In this document: positions 16,251 to 21,869 of the stretch, one piece after another
Layout: every line of letters begins with the position of its first letter
Numbering within the stretch: position 1 is the first letter of the stretch
DNA from: a virus
Taxonomy: Duplodnaviria > Heunggongvirae > Uroviricota > Caudoviricetes
Virus record (IMG/VR): IMGVR_UViG_2724679237_000010
Coordinates: 1-26,568 of that record
Length of the DNA: 26,568 nt
Strand: one strand, 5' to 3'
Position numbers and translations under genes: made by a program
Notes under the pieces: generated by a model
Seen by the model: the letters and a program-made list of their open reading frames with translations, nothing else
Told to the model about the DNA's origin: nothing
The model's database searches: none

Positions 16251-16480
16251 AATCGAACTCCCACGGGACGGCGGCGTCCCGTACTCAGACCGAGCTGTGA
16301 TTTCAGCTCGATAATGTACGTTCGGAGCTGTTCAATACTAGCCTGGGAGTACTGATAGCTCCGGTTATTTCCCGCTGAATCGCCGTGAGACAGCGATACA
16401 GTCGATCTACCCGTTAATAATTTGTGCAGGGCAATTTCAGCTTCCAGTAGCCGTTCTGTTAAAACCTCGCGCGACGTCAT
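16247..16480 (-). CDS. Head-tail connector / head completion protein (lambda gpW-like)
   Basis: 77-aa ORF between the large terminase and portal genes with ATGA overlaps. Resembles lambda gpW (..LHKLLTGRS.., ..YIIELKSQLG.. vs lambda ..LHDLMTGKR.., ..YIAELEVQTG..). Confidence 0.75.
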   Translation of the reverse strand: MTSREVLTERLLEAEIALHKLLTGRSTVSLSHGDSAGNNRSYQYSQASIEQLRTYIIELKSQLGLSTGRRRPVGVRL

Positions 16481-18441
16481 GAGCTCCCTCCGAGCATTCT
16501 GGCCATCTCCTCGAGAGACAGTTTGTTTTGTGATTTTTTCCGTTGCTCAGCGAGCGTCTCGAGATTGAGCTGGAAACGAATTTTACTGATACGTAGCGCC
16601 GCCAGCGCGTATACCCAGCAGTCGAGCGCTTCATTTCGCCGGCCCTGGTTGTCCCAGCGATAAACGACGCGACCGTTAATCAGTTTCGGGATCAAAACTT
16701 CAGAGACGAGCTGTTTTGCCTCTGTCGTGCCGAATATTTCGTCGTCGTTGGGAAAATGAATCGCACCTGGTGTCGCCGATTTAGAATCGGGTTCCAGCGG
16801 CAGGCGCATTGCGAGCAAATCTTTTGCCGTATCAGTACCGATTAACGACAAATAGACTTTATTCGCGTTACGTGTACGCGGCATATTTACGACTGGCTGA
16901 CCGTATGAGCTCGCACCTTTAATTGGAATGACCCACAGCGGACCGAGTTTCAGCGAGCGGTTATAAACGACCTGCGCATCTATACCACCGGTATCCCACG
17001 CCCAGCGACTGACGCCGATTGTGGTTCCGTCGCTGCGTCGGTATTGTTTGCGAATCACACCGTCGACGCGCTGCAGCGTGTCCTCCTCGTCGTAGCGACC
17101 GAGAACGATGGTTTTATCAATCAACCAGCACTCTTCCTCGGCTCCCCAGCCCCATACGTAACACTCGTAGCGCCCGGACGTCTGAGAGTCGATGCCACCG
17201 GTCAGATAGACAACACCGTCAGGAACCTGGCTGGCGTATTTTTCCCGGCGATTAACGAGAATATCGTGCTCCAGCTGCTCGCTGGCTACGTCGCTCCAGA
17301 GTTCGCCGAGCGTCGTGTTATGAAACGTCTTCTCCTTGAGCGGGTCGCCTTTCGCTTTCAGCCACTCGCTGACAATCTCGCCCCAGCCGTCGAGATTCAG
17401 TGAATACAGGGCGTTTATCACGATCGCAGCGTGTTTCGGTGCGCGAACGACGCCTCCGTCATGATCAAAAAAATGAATGCCGTCCCGGGTCCAGGTGCAG
17501 TCCTCGGCTATCCAGCGCCCTCCGAGCTCCATTTTTTCGAGGTCGCGATAGTAAAAATGCTCCGGGCAGTGGCAGCACTGGTAATACGCGGACGACGATT
17601 TCGCCTCATTGGTCTGTAAGCTGTTATCCCATTTGAGGCCGTATTCGATACCGTCGAGACCAAATACCAGGGTCTGCTCCTCGCTACAATGCGGACACTT
17701 CAGGTAAAAACGAAATGTCAGATCAGCAGCGTCTTCCAACATTTCTATATGGCTTTTGCCGGTAACGGTCGGCGTCGAACCGAAAATTGCTTTTGGGTAC
17801 GCTGCACCTTTAATTCGAACGAGCGCCAGCTCGATGGGCGAGCCCTCGCCCTTGCCTTTTTTTACAACCTCCAGCGGCCAGCCGTCGACTTCGTCACCCT
17901 CGACAACCTGTTTCGTCAGTCGCCGGAAATTTCCTGGTGTACTCGCGCCACGAAAATCGATAATCGCCCCGTTCATCTCTTTACGCTGGAGATTGTTACG
18001 CTCGTTGCTTTTATCCCAGTCGGGGAAAATTTTCTGAATCACCGGCATTTCGGCGATAGCGGGGTCAACCTCGTCGGCGACAAATCCATCCGATTCGTCA
18101 TCGATAGGCTGATAGACCACGGCACTACGTTTTTTGTGCTCAGCGAAATAGAGCAGCGCCGCGACGAGTATTTTTGTATAACCGAGACGAGCTGATTTGC
18201 GAACAGACACTATTTTTATCGCGTCGTTTGTCATCATATTCAACATCACAATCTGGACCGGCTGAGTCGTCCAGTGACCCGCAATATGGCTGGAGCCTTC
18301 GGGGAGGTAAAAATATTTATCAGCCCACTCAACCCCCGTCATCGGTATCGTCACGCGCAAGGGATTCAACCCTGTCGAGATCGCGTTCGATATCGCTGAC
18401 ATCGTAATCGCTGAAGTCGACTCGTATGTCTGCCAGTTCAT
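16477..18441 (-). CDS. Terminase large subunit (lambda gpA family)
   Basis: 654-aa ORF with many lambda gpA-like blocks: VEWADKYFYLP, KSARLGYTK, YLTGGIDSQ, VWGWG, IPIKGASSYGQPV.NMPR.RN, GTDTAKD, NEALDCWVYALAALRIS. The start may lie at an internal Met, since the longest ORF overlaps the small-subunit gene by 113 nt. Confidence 0.92.
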   Translation of the reverse strand: MNWQTYESTSAITMSAISNAISTGLNPLRVTIPMTGVEWADKYFYLPEGSSHIAGHWTTQPVQIVMLNMMTNDAIKIVSVRKSARLGYTKILVAALLYFAEHKKRSAVVYQPIDDESDGFVADEVDPAIAEMPVIQKIFPDWDKSNERNNLQRKEMNGAIIDFRGASTPGNFRRLTKQVVEGDEVDGWPLEVVKKGKGEGSPIELALVRIKGAAYPKAIFGSTPTVTGKSHIEMLEDAADLTFRFYLKCPHCSEEQTLVFGLDGIEYGLKWDNSLQTNEAKSSSAYYQCCHCPEHFYYRDLEKMELGGRWIAEDCTWTRDGIHFFDHDGGVVRAPKHAAIVINALYSLNLDGWGEIVSEWLKAKGDPLKEKTFHNTTLGELWSDVASEQLEHDILVNRREKYASQVPDGVVYLTGGIDSQTSGRYECYVWGWGAEEECWLIDKTIVLGRYDEEDTLQRVDGVIRKQYRRSDGTTIGVSRWAWDTGGIDAQVVYNRSLKLGPLWVIPIKGASSYGQPVVNMPRTRNANKVYLSLIGTDTAKDLLAMRLPLEPDSKSATPGAIHFPNDDEIFGTTEAKQLVSEVLIPKLINGRVVYRWDNQGRRNEALDCWVYALAALRISKIRFQLNLETLAEQRKKSQNKLSLEEMARMLGGSS

Positions 18442-18895
18442 TCAGGGCTATCGCCAGCTCCTCTCGTAATACACTGCTCGCCTCCTGCGGCATTTCAGGC
18501 CACACCTTTTTCAATCGTGGTGGCCACGACTCGACGCGGGTACGTAATTCAACGGCGACGCGAGATACAGCTACGCTGATTAATTCAATTGGCGCGTAGC
18601 GTTTAGCAAGAATGCGACGTTTTACTCGTGCCATCAGGATTCGCTCCTGTCGTTCCTCATTTTTCAGCCACTGCTCGCGATTTTTTTCGGGAGAATTGTC
18701 CCCCACTTCCGGTTCGTCAGTACCAATTGTGTCGCGTCTATTACTCCGGAGATAATGAATATAAAAATGGCGCCAGGCATCAAGGTCCCAATCGCCACGT
18801 CCCTGTGGGACTGGAGCTCCCGGAAGTTTTGCAAGATCGCGCAGACGACGATCAGATAGCAGTAAATGTGCTGCGACCTCAGCCTGACTTGCCAT
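18329..18895 (-). CDS. Terminase small subunit (Nu1-like)
   Basis: 188-aa ORF directly upstream of the large subunit. N-terminal HTH-like segment (AEVAAHLLLSDRRLRDLAKLPGAPV) resembles the Nu1 N-terminus; GAGGA lies 7 nt before the ATG. Confidence 0.65.
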   Translation of the reverse strand: MASQAEVAAHLLLSDRRLRDLAKLPGAPVPQGRGDWDLDAWRHFYIHYLRSNRRDTIGTDEPEVGDNSPEKNREQWLKNEERQERILMARVKRRILAKRYAPIELISVAVSRVAVELRTRVESWPPRLKKVWPEMPQEASSVLREELAIALNELADIRVDFSDYDVSDIERDLDRVESLARDDTDDGG

Positions 18896-19248
18896 TAAAA
18901 ATCCTCACCGGAACCGGAAATACCCAAAATGAAAAAATACTAAAAATGAGTGAGTTTTTGCGCGTCTACCGACCCTCGGTGTTTTGGATTTCGGAAAGGA
19001 CCCGCGACCAGGGGGCTATCTCCCTTTCAGGACAGGAATCGGGGGCTCGCATCAGGTTCATCAAACTCGACTGTAGCCTCGCGGCGTACTTATTTGCATA
19101 CCTCAGCTTTGTGTATCTGATTATCAGCATAAGCTTTCACTTTGGCAGCGAGCCATCCTTTTGCGCTGTATCGATAGGCTACCGAACAAGTTTTCGATAT
19201 ATGTATATATCTTGAACTTATTGATATCCTTACAGAAAAAAAACAGCC

Positions 19249-19509
19249 ATGAGCACACAAAAAATGAACAGAGAAAAAACTGAAGCCTTAATGAGCGTAA
19301 TATTAAAAGAAGCTGACCCAAAAAAGTTTCCTGAGAAGTTATCAGAGGACGCCATCGTATCTTTTTATCGTGCGAACTCCTCTTATCTAAATTGTTCAAC
19401 TTTACGAGAATGGTTAAGCGGCGAAGCAGAGCCTTCAGATGAGATACTTCAGGAGATTATGGTTCAGAACAACTGGCGCGCAACAAAATGGTCAAATCAG
19501 TTACCTTAA
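19249..19509 (+). CDS. Hypothetical protein (moron, opposite strand to the late operon)
   Basis: 86-aa ORF in an AT-rich segment between the lysis cassette and the terminase genes, followed by a GCCGCC/GGCGGC hairpin at 19524-19548. Ribosome-binding site is weak. Confidence 0.4.
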   Translation: MSTQKMNREKTEALMSVILKEADPKKFPEKLSEDAIVSFYRANSSYLNCSTLREWLSGEAEPSDEILQEIMVQNNWRATKWSNQLP

Positions 19510-19777
19510 CCTGTTGAATGTGTGCCGCCTTGAAACAAAAAAGGCGGCCTCTCGTTTAAGTAAACGTTTCTTTCATCAGCCTCCAGCTCTTTGGCACATT
19601 GCGCAGTTGTTTTTTATACGTAGGCGAGCTGTTGCGACGCTCAGTCCCTGCGCGTCACACCATTCTTTCGGTGATACACATGATTTGACGTACTCGGACA
19701 GGAACTGCTTCTGAAGCTCAAGCCCAGTCCCGGTTTGCTCATGTAATTAAATCCTACTGTATTCTCATGGTGCCCAG

Positions 19778-20119
19778 ATGTCGTCTATGCTTTTAACTCG
19801 AACATTCAATGAAGAGAAATGCTCTATGGTTATTGGTATGCAGGAATCAAAAAATTGCCCTGTATGCGGCTCTGATGCCACGTGGACAAATCACGATACG
19901 TGCTGGAAAATTCATTGCAGTGGTTTTTGCGGTGATTTTTTAATCACAACCATTACGATAAATTATCTGAAGGGCGATGCACTAAGGCGTCTTGATGCCA
20001 TCGATCTATTAAAAGAGCCAACAACCCTCAAGACACCTTTAACAAACAAAATCCTTGCTGAATATGCTCGTACAAAACATCCCGTGCACATCTTTGAAGG
20101 TCACTATCCGGGCTACTAG
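19778..20119 (+). CDS. Hypothetical Cys-rich protein (possible zinc-ribbon); start may be the internal Met at 19826
   Basis: ORF contains CPVCG...C..HC..FC, a zinc-ribbon-like arrangement. AT-rich; converges on the next minus-strand gene at a palindrome. Confidence 0.4.
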   Translation: MSSMLLTRTFNEEKCSMVIGMQESKNCPVCGSDATWTNHDTCWKIHCSGFCGDFLITTITINYLKGDALRRLDAIDLLKEPTTLKTPLTNKILAEYARTKHPVHIFEGHYPGY

Positions 20120-20394
20120 TCAGTACTAGTAACTTTCGAAATAGGAGAAATTTTAGATGTGTGATAATTCATCTCGTCGATAGTCTGAGAAATTAACTCA
20201 CTCGCGCCATTTGCAACTGCAACGCGATAATGCGGTCCATTCCATCGACTAAAATCGGATCGTTCATAAATTACTACCTCATCCCCCACAGAAACCCTTA
20301 ACTCAGTGCTACCTACAGGTTCAATAGCGGAATTAGAATAAATGTCTTCAACACGACCGTGAAAAGGCCCACCAACGAACAAAAACTGTGACAT
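20116..20394 (-). CDS. Hypothetical protein
   Basis: 92-aa ORF with a good ribosome-binding site (AGGAAA about 7 nt before the ATG); no recognisable motif. Confidence 0.5.
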   Translation of the reverse strand: MSQFLFVGGPFHGRVEDIYSNSAIEPVGSTELRVSVGDEVVIYERSDFSRWNGPHYRVAVANGASELISQTIDEMNYHTSKISPISKVTSTD

Positions 20395-20532
20395 ATAATT
20401 TCCTATTAAAAAATAACCAGTTAAATCGGCATTTAAAAGTATGTCATATTTATGATTCTGTCTTTAGCACCTTTGTGTGGTCAGGTTGTCTGGGCCAAAT
20501 GACCAATCATCAATTCATTAAGATAAATTACC

Positions 20533-20727
20533 CTATTTTCCAACGGGGCATGAAGCCACTGCCCCGGTTGAATCAATACAACCACCGTTCGCAGTAGTAA
20601 TCTTCGTACCCGGCGCGATCATCACGTGTTTAATGCTGCTGCCGTCAGCGCGAGTCGCTTCGGTGTATGTCGAATGTGTACATCCTGCCAGCGTGAAGAA
20701 CGCGACAGCTAAGAGAAGTTTTTTCAC
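20533..20727 (-). CDS. Small lipoprotein (signal peptide + lipobox LAGC); candidate o-spanin-like lysis component or exclusion lipoprotein
   Basis: 64-aa ORF starting MKKLLLAVAFFTLAGC... (type II signal peptide with lipobox Cys), beginning 7 nt after the endolysin stop. Confidence 0.6.
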   Translation of the reverse strand: MKKLLLAVAFFTLAGCTHSTYTEATRADGSSIKHVMIAPGTKITTANGGCIDSTGAVASCPVGK

Positions 20728-20734
20728 GTTTTAC

Positions 20735-21214
20735 CTACGCTTCTGAGATAGATTTCTCAGCATTCACGAATGGAAGTGATTGTGGAACATCCGTTTGACC
20801 TGCTGGCCAGCGATAGCCGGTAACGCGTGAGCTCGGAAAAGCTTTGATATTTACTTCATCTGCCTGGTTACCCCCCAAAATCATTAAATCCCCGGCGGCA
20901 TTTTTCCCGACAACAAAGCCAACGTGGCCACCGCCAGACCGGGACAGAATAGCAATGCATCCATAGGCGGGTTCCTTCAGTTCATTACCCCAATCGAGAT
21001 AAGAATTCGCAGACTCAAAACGCGTTGAGCGAATACCCGCACGTTCCAGCATTGCCCCGGTGAAAGCAGCGCACCACGGGGTTTCATCATCCTTAATGCC
21101 GCCGCGTTTGATATCTTTCCAGTACTGCACAATTTCTGCAGCATGTTGCTTCCCTTTCATTTCCCGAATGCCGAGATTTTTTCGTGCCTCAATTAGCCAT
21201 TTAGGATCGGTCAT
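20735..21214 (-). CDS. Putative endolysin, CHAP / NlpC-P60-like peptidase (TIGR02594-like)
   Basis: 159-aa ORF with a Cys...His pair in CHAP-like context (ETPWCAAFTGAML ... GGGHVGFVVG). Lies downstream of two holin-like membrane protein genes. Confidence 0.65.
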   Translation of the reverse strand: MTDPKWLIEARKNLGIREMKGKQHAAEIVQYWKDIKRGGIKDDETPWCAAFTGAMLERAGIRSTRFESANSYLDWGNELKEPAYGCIAILSRSGGGHVGFVVGKNAAGDLMILGGNQADEVNIKAFPSSRVTGYRWPAGQTDVPQSLPFVNAEKSISEA

Positions 21215-21486
21215 TACCTGTCTCCTGTTATTTTTGAAATATTCCCTCGTGCCCGCCAGACAGCAATACAGATGGTGAGATTGAGAAAGAACTCTGCGGG
21301 ATCAACCTGCGTATATTTCCCGTAAAAAATTCGTAGGGCTATCCACGCAGCAGACAGAATCGCCAGGTAAGCAGTTAGTGAGATAAAAAAACGATAGCGG
21401 CCTGTTTTTTGAAAAAACATCAACCGTAGTGCCAGCATCAGACAGATAATTGCATTGGCATTGATGAGGACAGAGTGCAGGGTCAT
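21214..21486 (-). CDS. Holin-like / antiholin membrane protein
   Basis: 90-aa ORF with 2-3 predicted TM segments, between the holin-like and endolysin genes with overlapping start/stop. Confidence 0.5.
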   Translation of the reverse strand: MTLHSVLINANAIICLMLALRLMFFQKTGRYRFFISLTAYLAILSAAWIALRIFYGKYTQVDPAEFFLNLTICIAVWRARGNISKITGDR

Positions 21487-21869
21487 TATTTCATCCCCTT
21501 ATCTGATTTCCATAAACGAGCTTGTGACATGATCCGCAACAGTGATGTAACGCTGATTACTGATGCAACCAGTGCACCAATGGCGGGAGAGACTTTTACT
21601 GTTACGGGAGGGTTCAGGTGACTCAGCACCGCGTTCAGAATACCGGTAATGATTGCTGACGCTGTCTCAGCGCAATACACACCGCCAACAAACGAAATGA
21701 GTGCGAAAATAACCTGCTTCCAGAATCGATGCTGCCCGGATGACAACACATAGAGAGCTGCGCCTGCCAGCGCACAGATCATCACTGCAGGTGTTGCCTC
21801 AGGAAATAACGCAGCAAACGTCACCCCCGCCGAGCCAGCAGCAACGCCAGCGGTTAGAGGTTCAGACAT
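21486..21869 (-). CDS. Putative holin (multi-TM small membrane protein)
   Basis: 127-aa ORF with 3 hydrophobic segments and a charged C-terminus; first gene after the Q-like gene and a promoter/terminator-like element. Confidence 0.55.
   Translation of the reverse strand: MSEPLTAGVAAGSAGVTFAALFPEATPAVMICALAGAALYVLSSGQHRFWKQVIFALISFVGGVYCAETASAIITGILNAVLSHLNPPVTVKVSPAIGALVASVISVTSLLRIMSQARLWKSDKGMK

Follow-up and report, generated by a model that had tools for sequence, protein, structure and literature searches.

What occupies the gap between the lysis and packaging genes of a lambda-like prophage, and by what route did it come to lie there? The question is raised by a 26,568-nucleotide (nt) stretch of caudoviricete DNA, IMG/VR record IMGVR_UViG_2724679237_000010 (the window), in which positions 19249–20394 hold three small genes, here called A, B and C. 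This slot had been described, from the letters of the sequence, as a cluster of morons in the place where lambda carries its bor-type genes, with a zinc-ribbon-like protein and a palindrome that may act as a terminator among its contents (the original prediction). With a probability of roughly 0.6, the locus is a slot for accessory genes near cos, at the right end of a lambda-like Escherichia albertii prophage, shaped by mosaic recombination; the three small genes in it are real, and one of them, B, encodes a rare zinc-ribbon protein. Lambdoid phages are known to keep lysogenic-conversion and defence-related cargo between their lysis and packaging genes, and the slot is a well-resolved example that has kept its scars: a stub of a small terminase gene (terS), a deletion between microhomologies and swaps at gene boundaries.

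Position and composition of the slot

The late operon of the window runs on the minus strand and comprises, in late-strand order, the Q antiterminator (22653–21982), two holins, a TIGR02594 endolysin, a 64-amino-acid (aa) lipoprotein, the slot, terS, a GpA-type terL, gpW and the portal gene. As originally described, the slot contains three small genes, two of which, A and B, lie on the plus strand and oppose the late operon, with C on the minus strand (Table 1). The AT-rich character of the cluster and its place between the lysis cassette and the packaging genes are equally plain: the fraction of guanine plus cytosine (GC) is 0.39 in A, 0.42 in B, 0.41 in C and 0.42 over the segment as a whole, versus 0.50–0.53 in the endolysin, terS and terL. 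The likeness to the bor slot of lambda also holds, as a cosQ/cosN-like site adjoins the slot and lambda bor and p78 are likewise oriented inward. Exact-sequence matches of the slot proteins come from E. albertii (CXP54_09705 to _09725) and other Escherichia, all annotated as hypothetical. None of the three proteins has a transmembrane or hydrophobic segment, and their isoelectric points are 5.1 (A), 6.9 (B) and 5.0 (C). Overlapping open reading frames (ORFs) on the opposite strands (19439–19714, 19963–20091 and others) were taken as spurious.

Mosaic history of the B–C segment

The history of the slot is recorded in the variants found among its relatives. A query of 1851 base pairs (bp) around the slot matches, at least in part, 444 of 5426 complete E. 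coli genomes; only 14 carry B and C. In the common EC28 type and in the induced phage vB_EcoM-705R4, window position 19564 is joined straight to 20528, and the entire B–C segment is absent. Repeats of 9–10 nt flank this junction at both edges (TTAAGTAAA on the left, TTAAGATAAA on the right), the mark that a deletion between short repeats leaves behind. A second arrangement, the E24377A type, keeps the terS stub and has two other genes in place of 19739–20563, one of 156 aa (plus strand) and one of 82 aa (minus strand); its left breakpoint falls exactly at the ATG of the stub, and its right breakpoint lies inside the last codons of the lipoprotein gene.

The stub itself, situated between A and B and overlooked in the original prediction, is a foreign fragment. 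It shares about 74% nt identity with terS of Klebsiella phages, shows at least two frame changes in a three-frame translation, and is flagged as a pseudogene by the Prokaryotic Genome Annotation Pipeline (PGAP) in E. coli W284. An uninterrupted 85-aa ORF at another of the compared loci, L010, matches the N-terminal part of this remnant, and the genes of that locus follow one another as lipoprotein, C, B and then the 85-aa ORF, an arrangement that, judged by gene order, is likely the donor-type layout of the B–C segment. At locus L015, B stands beside an intact 211-aa terS, and C is truncated by a deletion running into the endolysin.

The present form of the slot would have been built through mosaic recombination, in which the B–C segment (19565–20527) resembles a piece of another phage's lysis-to-terS junction and includes the dead foreign terS stub. 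Most relatives would then have lost the segment by deletion between the 9–10-nt repeats, or exchanged it at gene boundaries. Together, the deletion and replacement variants assign A to the phage backbone and B and C to imported, dispensable cargo.

A belongs to the backbone of this phage lineage and is not variable cargo. It is present in the deletion-type relatives, in vB_EcoM-705R4 and in the other E. coli relatives inspected, and a tblastn search of 50,697 phage records returned vB_EcoM-705R4 as its sole match. Residues 1–86 align with positions 1–86 of phrog_5191 at an expectation value (E) of 2.2e-59, a family without known function, and a Pfam scan of A gave only weak HTH_3 hints (E 0.08). 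The GC-rich hairpin behind A has a folding energy of −19.7 kcal/mol (z −3.68; 0 of 200 shuffles as stable) and is kept in the EC28-type relative; its U tract is weak and the terminator scan made no call, but to judge from the sequence it probably terminates A or stabilises its 3′ end. The record vB_EcoM-705R4 (L034, ON470624.1) is also the sole cultured or induced one with the shared backbone. At 27.1 kb it is about the size of the window, and its genes include one for ImmA/IrrE; this element may be a lambdoid that is defective or exceptionally small.

How far the term moron applies depends on the gene. Under the definition used, a moron is an independently expressed insert in a phage operon (quoted in PMC2629481). 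Presence in some related phages and absence from others is a feature of B and C (14 of 444) and not of A; a base composition unlike that of the neighbours is found throughout the slot, as given above. No promoter appears at the 9/12 cut-off of the scan, and in the way of terminators A has its hairpin with a weak U tract and B only a weak palindrome. A bor-equivalent accessory slot, variable among relatives, is sustained, but the single three-gene moron cluster of the original prediction is not: A is backbone, B is an autonomous antisense gene and C belongs to the late strand.

Gene B, a rare zinc-ribbon protein

B almost certainly starts at 19826 (MVIGMQ…, 97 aa), since its distant homologues all begin MVIGQ, a Shine–Dalgarno sequence lies upstream, and the earlier ATG is absent from L010; the longer, 113-aa version was rejected on the grounds of the homologous starts and the missing ATG. 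The Shine–Dalgarno sequence, GAGA or GAGG, precedes this ATG in each lineage (GAGA in the window). Farther upstream, a conserved block, GTCGTCTATGCTTTTAAC, is shared by the window, L015 and L010. The candidate promoter of the same intergenic region, TTCTCA-18-TATGCT, was picked by eye and falls under the 9/12 cut-off.

The zinc-ribbon-like motif that had been reported in one of the genes proves to be a genuine four-cysteine ribbon as judged from family conservation and a predicted structure. The motif CPVCG…CWKIHCSGFC is present in B; across 19 sequences four cysteines are family-invariant (CPxC…CxxxC), and the cysteine of the “CW” pair varies. The invariant residues are C11, P12, C14, C31 and C35, together with S16, A18, W20, N22 and several residues of the helices, and near the C-terminus there is a well-conserved (H/Y)(Y/F)PG(Y/D) element, HYPGY in the window. 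The four cysteines and HYPGY are invariant or nearly so down to 43% identity. An AlphaFold2 model from the 19 sequences (mean predicted local distance difference test, pLDDT, 88.5; predicted template-modelling score 0.76) has a four-strand ribbon over residues 6–41, followed by four helices over residues 42–93. Structure prediction, which had been proposed as a check on these proteins, thus gave a confident model for B, but one without a structural relative: the best match was at E 0.2 in BFVD and at E 0.44 in a Foldseek search of the PDB. The model of C was too poor to search. PDB sequence profiles gave nothing below E 0.1 for A, B or C, and NCBIfam gave nothing for any of them.

The B family is, by its sequence matches, tiny and confined to enterobacterial prophages. 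Among 1.84 billion clusters at 50% identity it has 3 genuine representatives; in a set of 5.8 billion non-redundant sequences it forms 23 clusters at 90% identity. The members with an organism name come from Escherichia or Enterobacter. A search of 185,579 species-representative genomes yielded one spurious 12-residue match only, and neither B nor C had a tblastn match in the 50,697 phage records. B and C are nonetheless real genes under purifying selection. The ratio of nonsynonymous to synonymous substitutions (dN/dS, Nei–Gojobori) is 0.12–0.26 for B against loci with 58–88% protein identity, over pairs with a proportion of synonymous differences (pS) of 0.2–0.7, and 0.15–0.20 for C against the window. 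Some alleles of B (the metagenomic P0002 and P0003, and L006–L009) have the stop TAG changed to CAG; in these B is longer by 15–16 residues, running into the coding strand of C, and the left arm of the palindrome is spoiled.

A recurrent place beside unrelated packaging genes

B keeps to an unusually strict rule of place. Nine of the ten distinct contexts have it antisense to the late operon, between the lysis cassette and the packaging module; the tenth (L006–L009) is a degraded prophage remnant with B and C beside an integrase gene. Seven of these nine have B directly upstream of the first packaging gene; the other two have something in between, namely A and the terS stub in the window and a 72-aa gene in L032. 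The contexts span at least five terminase types, and the first packaging gene may be the phrog_57 terS of the window, a 211-aa terS, a 344-aa terS, a ParB-like protein, an HNH endonuclease (with Terminase_4), a DUF1441 terS (with GpA) or a 162-aa protein (with Terminase_2/6). On its 3′ side the neighbours are mutually unrelated: C, a DndB-like gene, Rz/Rz1, a GH108 endolysin and assorted small ORFs. This variety argues that B is autonomous and that C is not an obligate partner. B is intact in L015 although C is truncated there, and distant homologues of B occur without C.

B would be transcribed against the late operon from the intergenic region that it shares with the first packaging gene, and both A and B may be driven by weak promoters of their own. 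The product would be a cytoplasmic protein composed of a zinc ribbon and a helical domain, binding a macromolecular partner, conceivably as a host-takeover or anti-defence factor and not in a structural or lysis role. Any single function assigned to B is at best doubtful.

The neighbourhood of the chromosome end offers one line of speculation. A block identical at 13 of 13 positions to lambda right-end sequence, CGGGTCCTTTCCG, the lambda counterpart of which we take to be cosQ, lies 17 nt from a cosN-like 12-mer (18 nt in lambda), about 70 nt upstream of terS. By this resemblance the pair probably marks the ends of the virion chromosome; if the position is right, both plus-strand genes, A and B, point inward from the right end of the chromosome, like lambda bor and p78. 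In lambda the right end is injected first. B, perhaps with A, could accordingly be pictured at the leading end of the virion chromosome as an early-entering unit of promoter plus gene, encoding a distantly Lar-like zinc-ribbon protein with an anti-restriction or anti-defence role; counted inward from the right cos end it would be the first complete unit, and its expression would precede the exposure of the remaining genome. Alternatively, antisense transcription of B might tune late read-through from the lysis genes into the packaging genes. Even taken jointly, these two proposals are long shots, albeit ones that would explain why the same slot and orientation recur in nine of ten contexts and beside at least five unrelated terminase types.

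What B would add to the picture of lambdoid accessory genes is a tiny family under purifying selection, with a confident model lacking a structural relative and with a place and orientation that are strictly kept across unrelated packaging modules. Should B turn out to counter restriction or defence, or to regulate late read-through, it would be a new small effector; otherwise the locus is routine phage mosaicism.

Gene C

C was recognised by PGAP under the name DUF8847, given to a 279-nt gene at the same position in E. coli CD09 (WP_071791986.1), where the B–C DNA is 98.6% identical. A Pfam scan of C gave no DUF8847 match, and the literature search found no paper that mentions the name. The family falls into three sequence clusters. 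Its structural model, made from four sequences, is beta-rich with a pLDDT of 57.5 and a tail below 50, too poor for a fold search. Versions of 80 aa end in …NYQPI; the lineage of the window is without that stop, and 12 more codons carry the frame into the stop of B, producing a 4-nt overlap. C accompanies close relatives of B only. It would be read from the late transcript and be dispensable for B; on account of its late-strand orientation and the lack of a detectable promoter of its own, C may simply be a late-operon accessory gene. The idea that C or other small ORFs 3′ of B form one hidden partner family was tried and dropped: all-against-all BLASTP leaves C unlinked, the sole pairs being L003_82 with L040_81 and L005_66 with L017_72.

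Comparison with known systems

The slot shares with lambda bor and lambdap78 its position after the lysis genes and before cos and the small terminase, its orientation opposing the late operon, its lower GC relative to the flanks and its patchy presence among related phages. There is, however, no likeness of sequence or fold to Bor, an outer-membrane lipoprotein, whereas A, B and C are soluble; nor was a promoter–terminator pair detected, A does not vary among relatives, and C is a late-strand gene. The Ogr/Delta proteins of P2 and P4 are small C4 zinc-ribbon phage proteins of 70–100 aa with the spacing CX2C-X22-CX4C. B differs from them in its spacing, CX2C-X16-CX3C, and Pfam Ogr_Delta was not reported for B at E ≤ 1. 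The “ant moron” of P22-like phages lies before the tailspike gene and comprises repressors, an antirepressor and the sar RNA (PMC2629481). Like the present slot, it is a variable, independently oriented insert inside the late operon whose transcription may influence read-through into downstream late genes, but it occupies a different place in the operon, and its repressors, antirepressor and sar RNA are absent here. A paper on Gifsy defence found in the literature search concerns an unrelated STAND protein in the immunity region.

Competing explanations

Several observations weigh against the account of a mosaic accessory slot with an autonomous B. A sigma-70 promoter scan with the 9/12 cut-off found nothing upstream of A, B or C, so that calling B an autonomous unit draws on its orientation and the conserved upstream sequence. 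The direction of the insertion or deletion event is deduced solely from the microhomology. Sequence and fold searches returned no significant match that would give B a function. In all four contexts where C occurs (the window, L010, L006–L009 and L015) it is the convergent neighbour of B, which could reflect a functional link, and a common E. coli allele of the palindrome preserves pairing through G–U pairs, as would be weakly compatible with a selected RNA hairpin. The link between B and C lends itself to the notion of a two-gene module, toxin–antitoxin-like or a defence pair, whose convergent 3′ ends give antisense control as in ralR/RalA, where the 3′ ends also converge and touch; the 4-nt overlap in the window and L009 fits the same notion. 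It is nevertheless a poor fit overall and improbable, as homologues of B at 45–71% identity sit beside unrelated genes without C, L015 retains B with a C that has lost its N-terminus, and the two genes of L010 are 31 nt apart without overlap. Of the RalR/RalA features, the zinc ribbon alone is RalR-like, and the convergent partner is a protein gene under purifying selection. No PADLOC match or Rfam small RNA (sRNA) speaks for a pair: PADLOC on A, B and C gave noise only (PD-Lambda-5_A, E 0.023), and an Rfam scan of 18800–20800 gave a chance microRNA match and no sRNA family. A related proposal is that B is a restriction-alleviation protein of the Lar/RalR type. RalR of the Rac prophage is a small zinc-ribbon DNase toxin that alleviates EcoKI restriction (PMC4041452); like B it is a small prophage protein with an N-terminal K-x-CPxCG…CxxC ribbon and a convergent 3′ neighbour. 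Pfam Lar_restr_allev is indeed the best match of B (E 1.8e-5), precomputed PF14354 tags from a newer version of the model, rated “weak”, are attached to close homologues of B, and hhalign aligns the ribbon with RalR residues 5–35. The match, however, scores 25.3 bits against a gathering cut-off of 28.6 and covers only profile positions 2–33 of 58, the hhalign probability is 31% over 30 columns, and B replaces the C-terminal “…ERWNKR” with a helical domain of 55 residues; Lar also belongs to the early recombination region, in place of the late-operon end where B is found. Membership is thus unlikely, and from these alignments B would share a generic ribbon with Lar without being a demonstrated member. 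The suggestion that morons such as these often serve exclusion or anti-defence accordingly stays a prior in the present case, given the PADLOC null, the sub-threshold Lar match and a likeness confined to the ribbon. The opposite extreme, that the ORFs are decaying, non-functional leftovers of recombination, would suit their proximity to a terS pseudogene, the loss of the segment from most related prophages, and the frameshifted or stop-readthrough alleles (P0005, P0006, P0012 and P0002/3), but it is very hard to sustain against the low dN/dS over well-diverged pairs, the retention of the cysteines and HYPGY in distant homologues and the confident structure prediction.

The palindrome at the B–C junction calls for the same scrutiny. 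The original account of it is correct in its geometry: an exact 18-nt palindrome, unique in the window, sits at the convergent junction and holds both stop codons, the TAG of B (20117–20119) and the stop of C (20116–20118, minus strand), by virtue of the self-complementary CTAG. The suggestion attached to it, that it may be a bidirectional terminator, fails on most counts, as does the wider reading of a functional terminator or insulator between the convergent genes, which has little chance of being right. Its placement exactly at the junction is suggestive, and so is the minus-strand RNA, in which G–U pairs extend the stem to 9 bp (z −3.27). Only two of the seven pairs are G–C, however, neither strand has a U tract (ACUUUCG follows on the plus strand and CCCGGAU on the minus strand), no scan call was made, and the plus-strand RNA folds no better than chance would allow (z −1.26; 20 of 200 shuffles fold as well). 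In the common E. coli allele, TATTAGT-cagt-GCTAGTA, two G–U pairs preserve the stem of the plus strand, but the same two substitutions break that of the minus strand. Nor is the palindrome conserved: it is absent from L010, carries one mismatch in L006–L009 and has only 5 bp left in L015; that L010 and L015 have another hairpin in the corresponding spot could be counted on the side of a terminator. Perfect 7-bp stems with loops of 3–8 nt are in any case common, with 17 listed in the window (about 14 distinct) versus 9.8 ± 3.4 in shuffles, which leaves the palindrome only mildly unusual, by its gene-junction position. Moreover, the late Q-modified polymerase must read past this point to the packaging genes anyway. 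In our reading the palindrome is incidental to the overlap of the two stops at CTAG and forms, at most, a weak stem-loop at the 3′ ends and not a terminator; the overlap came about when the original stop of C disappeared and its frame grew by 12 codons.

Features of the slot and its flanks

Table 1. Coordinates of the genes and sequence elements of the slot and its flanks in the window
Feature	Position	Strand	Remarks
terL (GpA-type)	16477–18441	−	Packaging-side flank
terS (phrog_57)	18329–18895	−	Packaging-side flank
Putative cosN GGTCGGTAGACG	18963–18974	−	Predicted, not mapped; 6/12 bases versus lambda GGGCGGCGACCT; local alignment with the lambda cos junction
cosQ-like block CGGGTCCTTTCCG	18992–19004	−	13/13 versus lambda right-end sequence just upstream of cosN
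Gene A	19249–19509	+	86-aa acidic soluble protein; opposes late operon
GC-rich hairpin GCCGCCTT-(9)-AAGGCGGC	19524–19548	+	15 nt past the stop of A
Left microhomology TTAAGTAAA	19556–19564		Edge of the ~950-bp segment absent from most relatives
Frameshifted 5′ terS remnant (foreign), MSKP…LQKQFLSEYVKSCVSPKEWCDAQGLSVATAR…	19584–19742 (ATG 19742–19740)	−	Pseudogene, between A and B
Intergenic region upstream of B	19743–19825	+	Conserved with B; candidate weak promoter TTCTCA-18-TATGCT and GAGA
Gene B	19826–20119 (longest ORF 19778–20119, 113 aa)	+	97-aa neutral soluble protein; zinc ribbon and helical domain
Palindrome TACTAGT-cagt-ACTAGTA	20114–20131		Exact, unique in the window
Gene C	20116–20394	−	92-aa acidic beta-rich protein, DUF8847 by PGAP; residues 78–92 a lineage-specific extension
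Right microhomology TTAAGATAAA	20518–20527		6 nt past the lipoprotein stop codon
64-aa lipoprotein gene	20533–20727	−	3′ of the endolysin; right border of cargo swaps
Endolysin (TIGR02594)	20735–21214	−	Flank of the slot

Lysis genes and other variable intervals

The 138-nt spacer between the lipoprotein gene and C (20395–20532) is the most AT-rich stretch, with a GC of 0.31, and an imperfect inverted repeat within it (20377–20395 / 20440–20458) overlaps the start of C. No spanin pair of the Rz/Rz1 type is recognisable after the endolysin in the lysis cassette (20735–21869). The 64-aa lipoprotein stands in the spanin place; it is conserved, has two extra cysteines and is without a C-terminal transmembrane segment, and its matches are weak (PHROG “Rz-like spanin”, E 0.012; YgdI/YgdR, E 0.009). 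L010 is arranged in the same way.

The slot of another B-carrying phage, L016 (4385–6066, minus strand), holds a 379-aa DndB/DGQHR-like protein (Pfam E 1.4e-31; PADLOC DndB E 4.6e-21) and an unassigned 181-aa ORF, which may be defence cargo. The interval between Q and the holin forms a second variable slot in HK97-like prophages that carry B: on the opposite strand, L039 has a protein with a weak TIR_2 domain there (5968–6783, plus strand), and L038 an NA37-family protein (5962–7137, plus strand). Pairs of late-strand ORFs also recur in the slot of unrelated phages, L003 2944–3192 with L040 4632–4877 and L005 3730–3930 with L017 4385–4603; these small families, at 33% and 66% identity, suggest a shared pool of tiny accessory genes at the lysis–packaging junction.

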